Positions 987-7,660 of a DNA stretch of 7,660 nt are shown here, in pieces (within the stretch, counting starts at the first letter, position 1; each line of letters begins with the position of its first letter). Position numbers and translations under genes: made by a program. The stretch lies in IMG/VR virus record IMGVR_UViG_2579778529_000005. One strand, given 5' to 3'. The stretch is from a virus (Duplodnaviria; Heunggongvirae; Uroviricota; Caudoviricetes). The notes under the pieces are model-generated. The model did no database searches and was not told where the DNA came from. It saw only the letters and a list, made by a program, of their open reading frames with translations.

Positions 987-1178
987 TTAAAGACCTGCCG
1001 GGATTTCGATATTATCCTGGTGAATAACTTTATCGACCGGGTAACAGTTACCGGGAATTTTCTGTTCGGTTGCTGCAGTCATACACTCCTGCATTGTCCT
1101 GTGAACACTGACTGCAATATCAACTGGCTCTCCGGAAACAAGAAAAACTGTCAGAACAAGCGCAAATGCTGAATTCAT
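987..1178 (-). CDS. ydfD: YdfD, 63-aa Qin-prophage small protein (reported lysis-inducing protein)
   Basis: Internal ATG at 1178 of track ORF 987..1232 gives MNSAFALVLTVFLVSGEPVDIAVSVHRTMQECMTAATEQKIPGNCYPVDKVIHQDNIEIPAGL, which I recall as E. coli K-12 YdfD. Its start overlaps the dicB stop (ATGA), as expected for coupled operon genes. Confidence 0.85.
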   Translation of the reverse strand: MNSAFALVLTVFLVSGEPVDIAVSVHRTMQECMTAATEQKIPGNCYPVDKVIHQDNIEIPAGL

Positions 1179-1363
1179 TGTGCACATCCTTTTGGCATCA
1201 GACGTAAACGAGCCAGCATTGAAACAATGCATATTTTATTTAATAGCTCCCGTTCTTGTTTTCTCTTGTTAATGGCATCTTCAGTAAATACAGGGTTACT
1301 GATAGTGACACCAATTTCAAAACAACCTTCAGACGTATTAACGTTTGGTAATAACGTTTTCAT
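1175..1363 (-). CDS. dicB: DicB, 62-aa cell-division inhibitor (MinC-interacting), translated from an in-phase internal start
   Basis: Internal ATG at 1363 of track ORF 1175..1468 gives MKTLLPNVNTSEGCFEIGVTISNPVFTEDAINKRKQERELLNKICIVSMLARLRLMPKGCAQ, matching my recollection of DicB. GAGGA RBS 8-12 nt upstream. The longer upstream frame fits the published in-phase internal start. Confidence 0.9.
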   Translation of the reverse strand: MKTLLPNVNTSEGCFEIGVTISNPVFTEDAINKRKQERELLNKICIVSMLARLRLMPKGCAQ

Positions 1364-1530: not shown

Positions 1531-1575
1531 TTAAAAAGGGCGGCAGAGCAGTCACGGAGTAAAACTGATACCGCC
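1531..1575 (-). terminator. Rho-independent terminator forming the 3' end of DicF
   Basis: GC-rich stem GGCGG...CCGCC inside the 3' half of DicF, immediately followed by a T-run on the minus strand (plus-strand A-run 1533..1537). Confidence 0.7.
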
Positions 1576-1590
1576 AAACGTCACCAGAAA
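1538..1590 (-). ncRNA. dicF: DicF small regulatory RNA (53 nt; Hfq-dependent, targets ftsZ and other mRNAs)
   Basis: Reverse complement of 1538..1590 reads TTTCTGGTGACGTTTGGCGGTATCAGTTTTACTCCGTGACTGCTCTGCCGCCC, the DicF sequence as I remember it, followed by a U-run (plus 1531..1537 'ttaaaaa'). Confidence 0.85.
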
Positions 1591-1923: not shown

Positions 1924-2157
1924 ATGTTAAAATCAACTCTTATTGCTAAATGCCTTTATCAAAATCGCATGGTAAGCAGCATTTCAATAGGCGAGTCTGC
2001 AGTTAAAAGTATTTTCGAAGAGTACTTCCCCGGGCATGATTTTAATAAATGGAATACCAAATTACCGCCAGCAGTTTCAACGCGTATTCTGAAAGCAACT
2101 GAAAGAGCAAGTACAATTCGCGTTAACTATTTCATTAAAGATTTGTGGGATCTTTGA
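1924..2157 (+). CDS. Hypothetical 77-aa protein encoded opposite to the dicB operon; no recognisable domain
   Basis: ATG at 1924 preceded by a perfect AGGAGG (1914..1919) at 4-nt spacing. AT-rich coding sequence follows a GC-rich structured region. The 3' end overlaps the 3' end of the 135-aa gene by 23 bp. No homolog recognised. Confidence 0.5.
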   Translation: MLKSTLIAKCLYQNRMVSSISIGESAVKSIFEEYFPGHDFNKWNTKLPPAVSTRILKATERASTIRVNYFIKDLWDL

Positions 2158-2542
2158 TATCCACAGAGCCTAAAGTATGTGCATATGGATGTGCTATTGT
2201 GCGCCCTCGCAGATTTGCATCATTTTCTAAATTCACTGAACGAAACAGGGCATCAACAAGGCTCTGTACAATGCAAAGGCAATCGAAGACTGTCGCTGTT
2301 TCTGTTTTGATTGATGAAAGAACATGGCCATTCACGCAAACAGAAATTACCCGTTCATTAACATCGCTTTCCTGCTTTTGATTATCAGAACCATATAGCC
2401 CAGAAAAAGCATTGCGCACATTACGAACCATATTATCGATGGTTTCTTTTTTGGTGTATGCCGGGTCAATTTTCACCAGACTATCACCGAGAGTCGTTGC
2501 AGCAATTGTCTGGATTTCTTTTGGTAAATCTTTAAATTCCAT
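2135..2542 (-). CDS. Hypothetical 135-aa soluble protein, extra gene in the dicB operon between ydfC and dicF; function unknown
   Basis: ATG at 2542 with GAGG RBS, starting 22 bp downstream of the ydfC stop on the same strand. Intact 135-codon frame ending TAA at 2135..2137. I do not recognise the protein (MEFKDLPKEIQTIAATTLGDSLVKIDPAYTKKETIDNMVRNVRNAFSGLYGSDNQ...). Confidence 0.65.
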   Translation of the reverse strand: MEFKDLPKEIQTIAATTLGDSLVKIDPAYTKKETIDNMVRNVRNAFSGLYGSDNQKQESDVNERVISVCVNGHVLSSIKTETATVFDCLCIVQSLVDALFRSVNLENDANLRGRTIAHPYAHTLGSVDIKDPTNL

Positions 2543-3264: not shown

Positions 3265-3672
3265 TTATCTTTTATTTGTCCGCTGACGGGCTTTTAGTAA
3301 TTCTTCAAAGAGTTTATTGAAGTTTTTTACTCGAGCTCGCATTTCGGCGAGCTGGGTATCCTGTTCTGATTCTGGCAGTGCATTAAACAGCTCAAGGAGC
3401 TCTAGTTCTTTGGGGGATAAGGCAACTGGCTTCTCAACAGGTGGTGTTGGTTGCTTGTCTTCATCGCCAAATAGAATCCATGTTGGTGAGCATTGCAATA
3501 CTTTGCTGAGGGCAAAAAGGTTCTTCCCTGTAGGTTCACTATCACCCCGTTCCCATTGTGATACAGACACATGGGAGATTTTCAGGGCTTTAGCAAGAGA
3601 CCTTTGGGTGTGTTTGAGGTTTTTCCGACGATACCTGATGCGTTCGCCGATAGTTAAATTTTTTGTTTCCAT
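3265..3672 (-). CDS. dicA: DicA, 135-aa XRE-family HTH repressor (cI/c2-like immunity repressor of the dicB operon)
   Basis: METKNLTIGERIRYRRKNLKHTQRSLAKALKISHVSVSQWERGDSEPTGKNLFALSKVLQCSPTWILFGDED... has an N-terminal HTH (QRSLAKALKISHVSVSQWERG) and matches K-12 DicA as I recall it. Divergent from dicC. Confidence 0.92.
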   Translation of the reverse strand: METKNLTIGERIRYRRKNLKHTQRSLAKALKISHVSVSQWERGDSEPTGKNLFALSKVLQCSPTWILFGDEDKQPTPPVEKPVALSPKELELLELFNALPESEQDTQLAEMRARVKNFNKLFEELLKARQRTNKR

Positions 3673-3755
3673 AGTTAGCTAATGCTAAATCGTATTGACT
3701 ATGTTTTTGTTAACATCTATCTTGTTAGTTATGACTAACAATAAAGGTGTTTTAA
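3673..3755. promoter_or_regulatory. Divergent dicA/dicC promoter-operator region: dicC promoter (-35 TTGACT 3695..3700, 17-bp spacer, -10 TATCTT 3718..3723) and operator palindrome TTGTTAGTtatgACTAACAA (3722..3741)
   Basis: Perfect 8-bp inverted arms with a 4-bp spacer overlapping the -10/+1 of the dicC promoter. Additional TTAGCTAATGCTAA motif at 3675..3688 just upstream of the dicA start. Confidence 0.6.
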
Positions 3756-3986
3756 ATGCTTAAAACTGACGCTCTTTTGTATTTCGGTTCAAAAACAAAA
3801 CTTGCACAAGCAGCAGGTATTCGTTTGGCTTCGCTTTATAGCTGGAAAGGGGATTTAGTTCCCGAAGGTCGCGCGATGCGTCTACAGGAGGCATCTGGCG
3901 GGGAGCTTCAGTATGATCCCAAAGTTTATGATGAATATCGTAAGACGAAGCGGGCGGGGCGGTTGAACAATGAAAATCACTCCTGA
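3756..3986 (+). CDS. dicC: DicC, 76-aa Cro-like regulator
   Basis: MLKTDALLYFGSKTKLAQAAGIRLASLYSWKGDLVPEGRAMRLQEASGGELQYDPKVYDEYRKTKRAGRLNNENHS matches K-12 DicC as I recall it. AAGGTG RBS. Divergent from dicA. Confidence 0.9.
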   Translation: MLKTDALLYFGSKTKLAQAAGIRLASLYSWKGDLVPEGRAMRLQEASGGELQYDPKVYDEYRKTKRAGRLNNENHS

Positions 3987-4491
3987 ACAGGCTCGTGAGG
4001 CTCTGGATGCCTGGATATGTCGACCAGGAATGACACAGGAGCAGGCGACGATATTAATCACTGAAGCATTCTGGGCTTTGAAAGAGCGCCCGAACATCGA
4101 TGTTCAGCGTGTCACATATGAAGGTGGCGCGATTGATCAGCGAGCGCTTGGCGTTAATCGAGTGAAGATATTTGAACGCTGGAAGGCTATCGACACCAGG
4201 GATAAGCGTGAAAAGTTCACGGCGCTAGTGCCTGCAATTATGGAGGCTATCCGGATTAATGATTTCAGGTTGTATCGTGAAATTACTGACGGAAAAAGCA
4301 TCACGTGCATGATCGCCGGGTTAAACAAAGAATATGGCGATGTGGTGGAGTCCGGACTGCTTTTTGCTGATCCTGCCGTAGTGGATCGTGAAACTGACGA
4401 ACTTATAGAAAAAGCAATTGCTTTCAAACTTGCGTATCGACAGCAATACCAACAAAAAGCTGGATGGAATTATGAGCCTTCTTTTTGCTGA
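3970..4491 (+). CDS. Hypothetical 173-aa phage protein at the position of a cII/YdaT-type early regulator (immediately after the cro-like gene); function not established
   Basis: ATG at 3970 overlaps the dicC 3' end by 17 nt, suggesting translational coupling. Frame is open for 173 codons. No recognisable motif; the assignment is positional only. Confidence 0.6.
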   Translation: MKITPEQAREALDAWICRPGMTQEQATILITEAFWALKERPNIDVQRVTYEGGAIDQRALGVNRVKIFERWKAIDTRDKREKFTALVPAIMEAIRINDFRLYREITDGKSITCMIAGLNKEYGDVVESGLLFADPAVVDRETDELIEKAIAFKLAYRQQYQQKAGWNYEPSFC

Positions 4492-5437
4492 ACGCCCACT
4501 GGTTATAAACACGCAGCTGGCAATGAAAATTGGCTTAAACGAAGCCATTGTTTTGCAACAACTGCACTACTGGTTGAGAGATACCAACTCCGGCATGGAA
4601 TGTGATGGTGTTCGCTGGATTTATAACACAACGGAACAATGGCTGGAACAGTTCCCATTCTGGTCAGAGTCAACGTTAAAGCGCGCGTTTGCAAGTCTGA
4701 AAACGCTGGGGCTTTTGCGTTGTGAAAAGCTCAATAAATCAAAGCGCGATATGACCAATTTCTACACGATCAACTATGGGAGCGAGCTTTTAGATGGTGG
4801 CAAATTGAGCGAATCCATCGGTTCAAAATGCGCCGCTCCATCAGGTCAAAATGACACGATGGAAGAGGTCAAAATGAAACGCTCCATTGGTTCAAAACGA
4901 CCCAATGTCATCGGGTCAAAATGGCCTGATGATCTTACAGAGAATACAACAGAGATTACTACAGAGAATAAAAACACTTTTCGTCCGGAAGCTTCGCAAC
5001 CGGACCCGCAGACGACTGAACAGGATTTTTTAACCCGGAACTCCGACGCGGTTGTGTTTAGTGCGAAAAAACGCCAGTGGGGTAGCAGGGAGGATTTGGC
5101 GTGTGCGCAGTGGATCTGGGGGCGGATCGTGGGTCTCTACGAACAGGCAGCCAGTGATGATGGCGAGATCATGCGACCAAAAGAGCCTAACTGGACTGCC
5201 TGGGCCAATGACGTGCGCACAATGCGGATGCTGGATGGCAGAAGCCACAGACAAATTTGCGAAATGTTTGGTCGGGTTCAGCGAGATCCATTCTGGGTAA
5301 AAAACATCATGAGCCCGTCAAAGCTCCGCGAAAAATGGGACGAACTGGTCATCCGCCTGGGACGTTCACCTGTACAGCGTTGTGTTAATCATATTTCTGA
5401 ACCGGATACAGAAATTCCGCCTGGTTTCAGAGGATAA
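4472..5437 (+). CDS. Phage replication initiator (lambda O-like), 321 aa from ATG 4472, with origin iterons inside the coding sequence
   Basis: N-terminal region MSLLFAERPLVINTQLAMKIGLNEAIVLQQLHYWL... looks like the DNA-binding domain of O-type initiators. Central SIGSK/GSK repeats are encoded by five 23-bp-phased iterons followed by an AT-rich tract, the classic lambdoid ori-in-O layout. The track start at 4418 is a TTG; ATG 4472 is preferred. Confidence 0.75.
   Translation: MSLLFAERPLVINTQLAMKIGLNEAIVLQQLHYWLRDTNSGMECDGVRWIYNTTEQWLEQFPFWSESTLKRAFASLKTLGLLRCEKLNKSKRDMTNFYTINYGSELLDGGKLSESIGSKCAAPSGQNDTMEEVKMKRSIGSKRPNVIGSKWPDDLTENTTEITTENKNTFRPEASQPDPQTTEQDFLTRNSDAVVFSAKKRQWGSREDLACAQWIWGRIVGLYEQAASDDGEIMRPKEPNWTAWANDVRTMRMLDGRSHRQICEMFGRVQRDPFWVKNIMSPSKLREKWDELVIRLGRSPVQRCVNHISEPDTEIPPGFRG
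4814..4976 (+). repeat. Putative replication origin: five about 17-bp iterons (consensus TCCATCGGTCAAAATG) phased every 23-24 bp (starts 4814, 4837, 4860, 4883, 4907), then an AT-rich tract with three ACAGAGA(A/T)TA repeats (4937..4970)
   Basis: Direct repeats read from the sequence. The architecture matches lambda ori (iterons plus AT-rich DNA-unwinding element within O). Confidence 0.65.
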
Positions 5438-5477
5438 GTGTTGATTTCAGGTCATGAGGTTATTTTAAGGGGGACTT

Positions 5478-5900
5478 GTGGCAAAAGTTTTTACACAAGA
5501 AGAGCGGGAAAAAATTAAATGGCAGGTGGTGGAACTCGTGCGCCAGAGCGGCCGTGAGACGTTACGGCAACTGGAAGCTAAAACAGGTGCGACTAGATAT
5601 CTGATGAGCGTTCTTGCCAGAGAGCTGGTAGCCAGTGGCGATGTATACAACTCCGGCTACGGGTTATTCCCCTCTGAACAGGCGCGTAAGGACTGGCAAA
5701 ACGCCCGCAAAAAACTCTCGAGGGCAAAGGTGAAGAAACCTGCTGTGGTTGATCCGGACCTTATCTGGTCATCACCTGACGGAGAAATACGTCGCTACGA
5801 CAGTCGCCTAAACATAATCTGTCGCGAGTGCCGGAAGAGCGAAGTTATGCAGCGCATACTGGCTTTCTATCAGGGTAATTTTCAGGACGTGGCGCAGTGA
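5478..5900 (+). CDS. Hypothetical 140-aa phage protein (GTG start), translationally coupled to the downstream methyltransferase-like ORF
   Basis: GTG at 5478 preceded by AAGGGGGA RBS at about 5-nt spacing. Basic protein with a CRECRK motif. Its stop overlaps the next start (GTGA at 5897..5900). Confidence 0.6.
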   Translation: MAKVFTQEEREKIKWQVVELVRQSGRETLRQLEAKTGATRYLMSVLARELVASGDVYNSGYGLFPSEQARKDWQNARKKLSRAKVKKPAVVDPDLIWSSPDGEIRRYDSRLNIICRECRKSEVMQRILAFYQGNFQDVAQ

Positions 5901-6253
5901 GTGCACCGGCAACCATTCTTGATATGTGCTGTGGCAGCCGCATGTTCTGGTTCGATAAGTCTGACGAACGGGCGATATTCAGCGATATCAGAAAAGAAGG
6001 ATACACATTACGCAATGGGAGACGCTTGATTATCAGCCCTGACATTATCGCAGATTTTCGTGCATTATCATTTGCAGACGCATCTTTTTCGATGGTTGTA
6101 TTAGACCCTCCGCATCTTGAGAGTGTTGGTGATAACGCCTGGATGGGAAAGAAATATGGACGGCTGAATAAAGATGCCTGGCGTGATGATTCGCGACAGA
6201 GATTTAAAGAAGCCTTTCGGGTGTTGAGGCCGCACGGCGTTCTGATTTTTTAA
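5897..6253 (+). CDS. SAM-dependent methyltransferase-like protein, 118 aa, possibly C-terminally truncated (candidate pseudogene)
   Basis: Motif I-like LDMCCGS near the N-terminus and motif IV-like VVLDPPH about 60 residues later (the D/N-PP-Y/F/H signature of amino-methyltransferases), then RVLRPHGVLIF. The frame stops at TAA 6251..6253 but stays open for about 30 more codons (WNETQIPVSQILALTDRKPVICQRTGKKR) before the next stop. IS3 is inserted about 150 bp downstream. Confidence 0.5.
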   Translation: MSAPATILDMCCGSRMFWFDKSDERAIFSDIRKEGYTLRNGRRLIISPDIIADFRALSFADASFSMVVLDPPHLESVGDNAWMGKKYGRLNKDAWRDDSRQRFKEAFRVLRPHGVLIF

Positions 6254-6402
6254 TGGAATGAAACGCAAATACCGGTAAGCCAGATTCTGGCACTGACAGA
6301 CAGAAAACCTGTTATCTGTCAACGAACAGGGAAAAAACGATAAAACCCACTGGATTATTTTTATGAAAGAGGCATCCAGTGAGTAGATTCGTAAGGCTAC
6401 AG

Positions 6403-6441
6403 TGATCCTACCCACGTAATATGGACACAGGCCTAAGCGAG
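6403..6441. repeat. IS3 terminal inverted repeat (right end, IRR)
   Basis: Imperfect inverted match to the terminal 39 bp at 7622..7660 (TGATCYTACCCA...TGGACAC...CTAAG). Confidence 0.85.
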
Positions 6442-7299
6442 GTTCTGGTTTTCAAATTGTTCCGGACTGAGGCCGCCACACCAACTGTGCCGCCGCCACC
6501 GATTGTAATCACATTCGATATAATTAAACACCGTTGCCCGCATTATTTCCCGGCTGATAAAGTGTTCTCCATGGATACATTCCACTTTCAGCGAATGAAA
6601 GAAGCTTTCCACGCAGGCATTATCGTAGCAGCAACCTTTTGCGCTCATACTTCCACGCAGATTATGCCGCTTCAGTTGCGCCTGATAATCTGCTGAACAG
6701 TACTGGCCTCCACGGTCCGTGTGAACGATAACGTTCCGGGGCCTCTTACGCCGCCACAGCGCCATCTGCAGGGCATCGCAGGCCAGTTGCGCCGTCATGC
6801 GTGGCGACATTGACCAGCCAATAACGGCACGTGACCACAGGTCAATGACCACTGCCAGATACAGCCAGCCTTCATCTGTACGTAAGTACGTGATGTCTCC
6901 TGCCCACTTCTGGTTCGGGCCACTGGCGTAAAAATCCTGCTCCAACAGATTTTCTGACACAGGCAGGCCGTGTGCGCGGTAGCTGACCGGGCTGAACTTC
7001 CGGGAGGCCTTTGCCCTCAGTCCCTGACGGCGCAGGCTTGCCGCCACGGTTTTTACGTTAAAGGGGTAACCCTGAGCACGCAGTTCATCCGTCAGGCGTG
7101 GGGCACCGTAACGCTGTTTTGACCGGGTAAAAGCCGCGAGGACAACGCTGTCGCAGTGTTGGCGGAACTGCTGACGCGTGCTTATCCTTGTCCGCCGCTG
7201 ACACCACGTATACCAGCCGCTGCGGGCCACCCGGAGCACGCGGCACATTGCTTTGATGCTGAACTCAGCCTGATGTTTTTCAATAAAGACATACTTCAT
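6433..7299 (-). CDS. insF: IS3 transposase OrfB (InsF), DDE integrase-type catalytic domain, 288 aa
   Basis: [36 protein letters not shown]... matches IS3 InsF as I recall it. Normally expressed as an OrfAB fusion by -1 frameshifting. Confidence 0.95.
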
Positions 7300-7595
7300 T
7301 TCAGGCGCTTCGCGAAGTATGTCGCGGCCTTTTGGAGGATAGCCAGCTCTTCATCCCGTTCTGCCAGCTGGCGTTTGAGACGTGCAATCTCGGTAGACAT
7401 CTCCAGTTCACGTTCAGAAGACGTCTGCTGATTTTGCTGTTTACTGCGCCAGTTGTAGAGCTGTGATTCATACAGGCTGAGTTCACGGGCTGCGGCAGTA
7501 ACACCGATGCGTTCAGCAAGCTTCAGGGCTTCACTGCGAAATTCAGGCGAATGCTGTTTACGGGGTTTTTTACTGGTTGATACTGTTTTTGTCAT
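7296..7595 (-). CDS. insE: IS3 transposase OrfA (InsE), HTH DNA-binding protein, 99 aa
   Basis: [54 protein letters not shown]... The track ORF carries a 3-codon N-terminal extension (MTHMTKTV); the 99-aa form is the known product. Confidence 0.9.
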
Positions 7596-7621
7596 GTGAG
7601 TCACCTCTGACTGAGAGTTTA

Positions 7622-7660
7622 CTCACTTAGCCGCGTGTCCACTATTGCTGGGTAAGATCA
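7622..7660. repeat. IS3 terminal inverted repeat (left end, IRL)
   Basis: Reverse complement reads TGATCTTACCCAGCAATAGTGGACACGCGGCTAAGTGAG. Flanking target duplication cannot be assessed because the window ends here. Confidence 0.85.

Follow-up and report, generated by a model that had tools for sequence, protein, structure and literature searches.

What do the two genes do that flank the replication initiator in the early region of the viral record IMGVR_UViG_2579778529_000005 (Duplodnaviria; Heunggongvirae; Uroviricota; Caudoviricetes)? The window, that is, the whole stretch of 7,660 nucleotides that we analysed, carries between positions 3970 and 5900 an open reading frame (ORF) of 173 amino acids (aa) after dicC and another of 140 aa after the initiator, neither of which could be assigned in a preliminary description made from the letters alone. 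We find that both are already named in RefSeq and in phage records. By sequence and predicted fold, the first is a divergent regulator of the YdaT family, a predicted functional analogue of lambda CII that does not belong to the CII family, and the second is a homologue of lambda Ren, DUF977 representing the long form of Ren. We are confident of the reading as a whole, which comprises the operon layout, a CII-like regulator of the YdaT type and a DUF977/Ren accessory protein that is not a helicase loader. The two genes are as follows.

3970–4491, plus strand: gene of the 173-aa protein, ATG start; predicted transcription factor of the YdaT family (Pfam, PHROG, PDB profile, Foldseek, hhalign).
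5478–5900, plus strand: gene of the 140-aa DUF977/LygF protein, Ren homologue, GTG start; N-terminal winged helix and C-terminal motif.

In a lambdoid prophage of the Qin type, the locus forms the rightward early operon; it is an ordinary, more complete copy of the early region of Qin in Escherichia coli K-12. Positions 3600–6300 are shared at 100% identity with the Qin-type prophages of E. coli ATCC 8739, of strain W and of many other chromosomes, where RefSeq names the coding sequences (CDS) dicC, 'toxin YdaT family protein', 'hypothetical protein' (the initiator), 'DUF977 family protein' and 'class I SAM-dependent methyltransferase' (SAM, S-adenosylmethionine). Over positions 3700–6250, phage PhiR42_1 is also 100% identical, with its genes labelled Cro, cII, O, LygF and methyltransferase, and phages HannyBb and mEp460_ev081 are 96–97% identical and share the same module without a loader gene. 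Phage records thus label the 173-aa gene 'cII' and the 140-aa gene 'LygF' or 'Ren-like exclusion protein'. Among 5,426 complete E. coli genomes, 2,121 (39%) carry the 173-aa gene at 80% coverage or more, and 3,913 (72%) carry the 140-aa gene, in up to six copies per genome; the whole window is matched to at least 80% by only two. The exact proteins are therefore already known under family names and are nothing new in kind; it is likewise already known that YdaT proteins have published structures and operators, and that PHROGs groups DUF977 with Ren.

Both ORFs are real genes and not chance frames. The ORF list and the RefSeq annotation of a 100% identical genome agree on the boundaries of the two frames, the 173-aa frame overlapping the 3' end of dicC by 17 nt and the 140-aa frame having the GTG start. 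Homologues of both proteins reach down to 35–43% identity in other enterobacteria, and the ratios of nonsynonymous to synonymous substitution (dN/dS) indicate purifying selection: 0.19 for the 173-aa gene against its homologue in the O157-type prophage PPompW (dS 0.47; HannyBb and mEp460 differ too little for an informative value) and 0.11–0.31 for the 140-aa gene against four homologues.

Assignment of the 173-aa protein to the YdaT family draws on profile matches, predicted structure and gene position. It scores 24.2 bits with Pfam YdaT_toxin (PF06254), for which the gathering score is 21 (E 4.5e-5), and matches PHROG 163, 'CII-like transcriptional activator', at 5.5e-40. Among PDB sequences, a profile of eight homologues found YdaT structures only, 8bt1 (4.4e-4) and 3c4r (2.3e-3); the single sequence gave marginal matches, so the profile was needed. 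The AlphaFold2 (AF2) model has a mean predicted local distance difference test score (pLDDT) of 66.6, with values of 72–87 over residues 1–100, and matches the N-terminal POU-like helix-turn-helix fold of 8BT1 and 3C4R. Its best Foldseek match in the PDB is again 8bt1 (probability 1.00, E 4.6e-3, 28% identity), followed by matches with E above 0.4. An hhalign comparison with YdaT of the prophage Rac-SA53 (91%) aligns IFERW with IYHRW, superposing the Arg-Trp pair of the recognition helix, and both residues of this pair (R70 and W71) are invariant in an eight-sequence alignment. In the corresponding pair of Rac YdaT (R57/W58), the arginine contacts DNA and the tryptophan holds the fold (PMC11879457). 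The position of the gene points the same way and confirms its earlier placement where cII/YdaT-type regulators lie: it stands between a cro-type gene and the initiator gene, divergent from the repressor gene, in the window, ATCC 8739, PhiR42_1, HannyBb, mEp460, PPompW, Citrobacter, Raoultella and a prophage locus with immunity genes of the PaaR2–PaaA2–ParE2/YdaS type (L012, 3231–5402).

In Pfam family, in the position between cro-type gene and initiator and in the Arg-Trp pair, the 173-aa protein thus resembles the YdaT proteins of CP-933P (PDB 8BT1), E. coli O6 (PDB 3C4R) and Rac. It differs from them in sequence, with about 27–28% identity in the aligned stretches; in length, with 173 instead of 140–141 aa and a longer C-terminal region; and in its immunity partners, which are DicA and DicC rather than RacR/YdaS or PaaR2/YdaS. 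With lambda CII it shares the slot (after cro and before the initiator) and presumably a role as activator of repressor establishment, but no detectable homology, as neither Pfam Phage_CII (PF05269) nor a BLASTP alignment was found and hhalign gave 0.6%. CII recognises the direct repeat TTGC-N6-TTGC, whereas the YdaT site is an inverted repeat. NCBIfam models matched neither the 173-aa nor the 140-aa protein.

The family name carries an alternative with it. Given that Pfam speaks of 'YdaT_toxin' and RefSeq of 'toxin YdaT family protein', the 173-aa protein might be the toxin of a YdaS/YdaT-type toxin–antitoxin pair, with DicC as the antitoxin, and the Rac study does describe filamentation and death upon over-expression of Rac YdaT (PMC11879457). 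The toxin label, however, originated as the prediction of an algorithm, without experimental confirmation, and genetic context and experiments have since made YdaS an analogue of Cro and YdaT an analogue of CII (PMC5917428; PMC8630535; PMC9986795), an equivalence for which experimental arguments come also from Rac (PMC11879457). YdaT of CP-933P is non-toxic (PMC8630535), and YdaT is a DNA-binding tetramer with defined operators (PMC9986795; PMC11879457). Moreover, a protein 91% identical to the 173-aa protein stands beside an unrelated cro-type gene in another prophage, an ill fit for a cognate toxin–antitoxin pair. We regard a toxin as extremely improbable here, and we return to the CII-like regulator, for which a candidate binding site was found at the start of the gene itself.

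3963–3980: YdaT-box-like element TTGAACAATGAAAATCAC across the ATG of the 173-aa gene; candidate site for binding by the encoded protein.

Two operators have been defined for other family members: the tetrameric CP-933P YdaT, by its POU-like helix-turn-helix domain, binds TTGATT-N6-AATCAA (the operator OM) at the ydaS/ydaT junction (PMC9986795), and Rac YdaT, acting on the YdaT-box ATGATTCATGAAAATCAA, stimulates a reverse promoter that lies within ydaS by as much as 29-fold and increases the expression of racR (PMC11879457). The element at 3963–3980 resembles both and, as in Rac, is a TGA-N10-TCA box; its half-sites are TTGAAC and AATCAC, compared with TTGATT and AATCAA in the known site. The pattern NTGA-N10-TCAN is found exactly at −6 relative to the ATG in each of the eight loci compared (the window, HannyBb, mEp460, PPompW, the PaaR2/YdaS-type locus L012, Citrobacter, Raoultella and Rac-SA53), including Citrobacter and Raoultella, whose regulators are homologues of only 40–43% aa identity. 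The upstream flanks of the box are unrelated among the loci, the half that does not code for protein (TGAACA) is conserved as well, and nowhere else in the 7,660-bp window does TGA-N10-TCA occur. In L012, the regulator (91% identity) follows a cro-type gene without similarity to dicC, and the junction falls some 12 nt upstream of the ATG, immediately beyond the box; the box therefore travels with the ydaT-type gene.

By homology with Rac and CP-933P YdaT, the 173-aa protein would bind this box at its own start codon through the POU-like helix-turn-helix domain. Once bound, it would stimulate a weak leftward promoter inside the cro-type gene, from which transcription would run through dicC into dicA. 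More DicA repressor would then be made and lysogeny favoured, which is the job of CII in lambda.

A number of results weigh against this picture. The Pfam margin is small, only 3 bits over the cut-off, and the PDB profile E-value is modest, at about 1e-3. Beyond residue 110 the AF2 model is poor, and the helices predicted after residue 95, where the long C-terminal helix of tetramerisation would lie, have pLDDT values below 50. The experiments on YdaT concern other members, the present subfamily being only about 28% identical to 8BT1. The box differs from the published consensus at three positions and, when that operator is searched for in the window with three mismatches allowed, does not rise above chance (4 matches, 5.7 expected); it is made informative only by the cross-locus comparison. 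Part of it, ATGAAAATCA, also codes for the conserved N-terminus Met-Lys/Ile-Ile (MKI), so that coding constraint contributes to its conservation. Finally, a simple scan for promoters returned nothing leftward and PRE-like within dicC.

We now turn to the 140-aa gene, for which the ribosome-binding site and the CRECRK motif singled out by the preliminary description were both recovered, the latter within ICRECRK.

5467–5474, plus strand: Shine-Dalgarno-like AAGGGGGA of the 140-aa gene, read from the sequence, three bases before the GTG.
5811–5870, plus strand: codons of the family motif N-x2-C-x-E-C-R-x-S-x2-M-x-R-[IV]-L-A-F-Y, residues 112–131, including CRECRK.

The 140-aa protein matches Pfam DUF977 (PF06163) at 5.1e-29, with 101.5 bits against a cut-off of 22.1 and residues 1–136 aligned to positions 1–134 of the 134-position model. 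The link to lambda comes from PHROG 142, 'Ren-like exclusion protein', which is matched by the 140-aa protein at 1.6e-47 and by lambda Ren at 1.6e-41. By BLASTP the two align over the last 20 residues only (50% identity, E 2e-6), and a profile of 12 diverse DUF977 proteins aligns with Ren in hhalign at 95.1% (E 3.1e-8) over 76 columns that span the winged-helix region and the C-terminal motif. Within the motif, N112, E117, C118, R119, S121, M124 and R126 are invariant in 13 DUF977 proteins and lambda Ren, and C115 is a phenylalanine in Ren. A zinc site at CRECRK was considered and rejected: there are two cysteines only, no other Cys or His is conserved, and the replacement of the first cysteine of CxxC by Phe in lambda Ren argues against it.

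Ren (96 aa) and the 140-aa protein therefore share PHROG 142, the winged-helix region, the motif N-x4-ECRxSxxMxRVLAxY and a gene position directly after the replication genes of the PR operon. They differ in that Ren is without the central linker of about 40 residues and the first Cys of CxxC, that ren follows P while the 140-aa gene directly follows the initiator, and that lambda has rexAB, whereas no rex genes were seen in the window. The preliminary description had held that clear homology to well-characterised lambda proteins would overturn its view of the two genes as uncharacterised; such homology exists for the 140-aa protein, although Ren is itself poorly characterised, and for the 173-aa protein none to CII is detectable, only that to YdaT.

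The family is small, with 99 cluster representatives, mostly fragments, among 1.84 billion, and the named members listed are prophage proteins of Escherichia, Shigella and Salmonella. In the literature, 'LygF' occurs as a name only, taken from a difference region of Salmonella Enteritidis. YdaW of K-12 Rac was considered as a DUF977 member and rejected, as it is DUF1627, another protein, located ahead of DUF977 in Rac-type phages; the winged-helix similarity of DUF1627 to DUF977 is weak (27%). A gene of the DUF977/Ren family stands after replication genes in lambda, the window, phiSTEC1589, Rac-SA53, L012 and Citrobacter, and we found one exception, in a Salmonella contig (L011), where it stands after recE.

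Escape from Rex exclusion is the classical phenotype of lambda Ren, which is non-essential. In a preprint Ren is called 'likely involved in DNA replication' and makes two-hybrid contacts with Rex proteins (bioRxiv 10.1101/2021.04.19.439022). Like Ren, the 140-aa protein would be a non-essential accessory of the early operon, a role that we propose with less certainty than that of the 173-aa protein. Its winged helix and C-terminal motif would act on DNA or on a partner common to all hosts and phages, and not on the adjacent initiator; the likeliest roles may be protection against Rex-type exclusion or modulation of replication. Two points tell against this reading: lambda Ren stays below the Pfam DUF977 threshold, and Foldseek searches of BFVD and the PDB with the model of the 140-aa protein returned generic winged helices of the MarR/GntR/IclR type only, with no specific relative and no Ren model. 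A single-sequence search of the PDB gave chance matches only. PADLOC defence models matched none of the 173-aa protein, the 140-aa protein, the initiator and lambda Ren.

The fold could be read differently. In the AF2 model (mean pLDDT 76.7), the MarR/GntR/IclR-type winged helix at residues 11–70 is confident, with values above 90, the C-terminal part being less so, and an earlier profile analysis placed DUF977 among the winged-helix DNA-binding domains (PMC2686095). The 140-aa protein might accordingly control transcription in the early or nin region as a sequence-specific factor, for instance that of downstream genes, its likeness to Ren not being predictive of function. No candidate operator was identified for it, though, conservation in DUF977 peaks in the C-terminal motif instead of the recognition helix, and near-identical DUF977 genes precede completely different downstream genes between loci. 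We judge a specific transcription factor to be unlikely, and prefer the Ren-type accessory.

The gene follows the initiator, where lambda has P, and it is sequence and mosaic pattern, not size, that exclude a helicase loader. The preliminary description had dismissed this function for a protein of 140 aa. The dismissal holds, but the size argument is invalid alone, since sister prophages carry lambda-P-like proteins of 140–153 aa at the same position. Against the loader families considered, lambda P (PF06992) and the DnaC/IstB type (PF01695), the 140-aa protein yields no Pfam match other than DUF977, and hhalign gives 0.9% with lambda P and 0.4% with the P-like 140-aa protein of PPompW.

The arrangement of relatives provides a second line of evidence. 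A dedicated loader precedes the DUF977/Ren gene in lambda (O-P-ren), in phiSTEC1589 (O-DnaC-YdaW-DUF977) and in Rac-SA53 (YdaU, the P-like YdaV, YdaW, LygF), and in Citrobacter a Ren-sized relative of 109 aa follows a DnaC-type loader. Nor does the DUF977 protein co-vary with its cognate initiator: L012 combines an initiator 95% identical to that of the window with a DUF977 protein only 43% identical, and Rac-SA53 combines a DUF977 protein 92% identical with an unrelated initiator. In the Salmonella contig, the DUF977 gene beside recE is far from the P2 gpA-type replication gene. The 140-aa protein thus swaps freely between unrelated initiators and is therefore not a helicase loader; by sequence and mosaic pattern, we take it to be unrelated to lambda P and DnaC.

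It could still be argued that the 140-aa protein has replaced lambda P as a small helicase-recruiting adaptor in a replicon devoid of a DnaC- or P-type gene. Its gene occupies the slot directly after the initiator, which in the sister prophages PPompW and Rac-SA53 holds a P-like protein of 140–153 aa; the module is without a loader gene even in the phage genomes of HannyBb and mEp460_ev081; and the description of Ren as probably taking part in replication (bioRxiv 10.1101/2021.04.19.439022) would fit. The same comparisons nevertheless speak against such an adaptor: the protein has no similarity to P or to the small P-like proteins, relatives elsewhere follow a dedicated loader, the double dissociation between DUF977 type and initiator type is at odds with a specific partnership, and the Salmonella copy lies apart from the replication gene. 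In addition, lambda work cited in PMC3640518 found Ren not to be responsible for the P-dependent phenotypes. We consider a replacement of P very unlikely, which shifts attention from the Ren-type protein to the initiator itself.

4472–5437, plus strand: 321-aa replication initiator with a lambda-O-like C-terminal domain and a different N-terminal domain (PHROG 391, 'replication initiation O-like', 1.3e-91).
4800–4931: five iterons, core GGTCAAAATG, spaced 23–24 bp, inside the initiator gene (direct-repeat family D1).
4936–4973: three 12-bp A-rich repeats adjoining the iterons (direct-repeat family D2).
5375–5434, plus strand: DnaT-like tail QRCVNHISEPDTEIPPGFRG, the last 20 codons of the initiator; 14 of 20 residues shared with the very C-terminus of the primosomal protein DnaT of E. 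coli (E 9e-8).

The initiator, whose dN/dS is 0.04–0.08, is 34% identical to lambda O over 148 C-terminal residues (E 1e-26), and its N-terminal domain is not matched by the Pfam Phage_rep_O domain. As in lambda, iterons lie inside the initiator gene, here encoding a repeated IGSK peptide. Together with the A-rich repeats, which by analogy with lambda ori probably serve as the unwinding region, they make up a lambda-style origin (4800–4973). Unlike lambda, the module has no P or DnaC gene. The likeness to host DnaT is confined to the last 20 residues and does not extend to the PF17948 domain that the initiators of PPompW and Rac-SA53 possess; it is seen also as a weak NCBIfam match to DnaT (model positions 160–179 of 179), and the matches of two further PHROG families are restricted to the final 25 or so residues of the initiator. 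The O protein of phiSTEC1589, otherwise different, ends in the same tail, and this phage encodes a DnaC-type loader of its own. O-like proteins with C-terminal domains derived from DnaT are known from earlier work (PMC5509034), and in the literature on the DnaT C-terminal tail we found no defined function for its last 20 residues.

As the module of HannyBb and mEp460_ev081 has no loader gene, we infer that the initiator recruits host DnaB–DnaC directly. It would probably do so by means of its lambda-O-like C-terminal domain and the DnaT-like tail, and the tail may explain how a module without a loader recruits DnaB–DnaC. A bolder version, to which we would give a rather small chance, is that the initiator itself plugs into the host restart primosome, the tail handing DnaB–DnaC or PriB to the origin, and that Ren/DUF977 is an initiator-independent shield against exclusion by host or prophage. 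If this were true, the DnaT tail would gain a defined function and the Ren family a mechanism.

The remaining elements complete the operon.

3695–3723, plus strand: PR-like sigma-70 promoter TTGACT-17-TATCTT in the dicA–dicC intergenic region, for the rightward early operon.
3712–3751: imperfect 18-nt inverted repeat, arms 3712–3729 and 3734–3751, 83% complementary.
3756–3986, plus strand: dicC, Cro-type regulator of 76 aa (Pfam P22_Cro, 1.7e-11); annotated as dicC in the 100% identical genome.
5897–6253, plus strand: 118-aa fragment of a SAM-dependent DNA methyltransferase (PHROG 954, 6.7e-58).

The promoter is the sole consensus match that the promoter scan returned within positions 3600–6000. 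The inverted repeat overlaps it and the ribosome-binding region of dicC and, from this position, is likely the operator of DicA and DicC. Gene order runs from the PR-like promoter and operator through dicC (the Cro analogue), the 173-aa regulator, the 321-aa initiator with its internal iteron origin and the 140-aa gene to the methyltransferase fragment. At its 3' end the 173-aa ORF overlaps the initiator, from the ATG at 4472, by 20 nt, and the stop of the 140-aa gene shares GTGA (5897–5900) with the GTG start of the next gene. As successive genes overlap or adjoin one another, all are probably translated from a single transcript. No RNA family was found by Rfam in 3970–5900. The methyltransferase fragment covers only positions 52–165 of the 229 of the PHROG 954 profile; because the CDS has the same length, 118 aa, in ATCC 8739, it appears to be a conserved truncated remnant that was not cut by IS3. 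A complete IS3 of 1,258 bp occupies positions 6403–7660 (orfA 7296–7604 and orfB 6433–7299, minus strand), inserted about 150 bp downstream of the fragment at a site that is without IS3 in most related genomes.

On the leftward side, the small RNA DicF (1538–1589, minus strand; Rfam RF00039, 76.7 bits) and dicB (1175–1363, minus strand) are both intact, and the division-inhibition operon of Qin is therefore complete in the window. Between ydfC and dicF lies a segment of 634 bp (1911–2544) that is not in K-12 or ATCC 8739 and is found in PPompW and in 646 of the 5,426 E. coli genomes. It carries an ORF of 135 aa (2135–2542, minus strand; PHROG 1363, function unknown) with a variable stretch of 30 N-terminal residues and a dN/dS of 0.74 against PPompW.

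The suspicion that Qin of K-12 has lost most of this region, and that this locus is more intact, was borne out by the comparison of K-12 with ATCC 8739 and the window.

4250: left junction of the 4,799-bp deletion in K-12 Qin (blastn of K-12 against ATCC 8739 and the window).

The flanks of ydfX–ydfW in K-12 Qin are collinear with the window, and the deletion removes the rest of the ydaT-like gene, the initiator, the DUF977 gene, the methyltransferase fragment and the DNA up to just before ydfW. K-12 YdfX is 100% identical to residues 2–93 of the 173-aa protein; as the deletion starts at window position 4250, YdfX is a 93-residue stump of the regulator. Many database proteins that start like the regulator are chimeras running into initiator, DnaC-like, DUF968 or DUF977 sequence, which suggests that K-12-like deletions with breakpoints in the 173-aa gene have happened repeatedly.

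Exchange of modules is evident at the same place. PPompW (L009, PPompW_132418, 4513–6741) shares the dicA, dicC and ydaT-like genes, with a regulator 84% identical, and then differs in its replication module, which has an initiator with a DnaT DNA-binding domain followed by the 140-aa lambda-P-like protein. This switch marks the 3' end of the ydaT-like gene as a mosaic junction and makes the match in size between the P-like protein and the DUF977 protein coincidental. In L012, the regulator, the initiator and the DUF977 protein are 91%, 95% and 43% identical, respectively, to those of the window.

Taken together, the two ORFs that had been called unassignable are very common prophage genes of named families, so that the value of their assignment is mostly one of housekeeping. 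Some consequences reach further. The misleading label 'toxin YdaT' is better read as 'CII-like regulator', and the orphan gene ydfX of K-12 is explained as the stump of such a regulator. The retention of the YdaT-box-like element across very divergent members of the family indicates that the candidate operator moves with its gene through mosaic exchange, and the exchange of DUF977 genes independently of initiator type narrows the possible functions of lambda ren.

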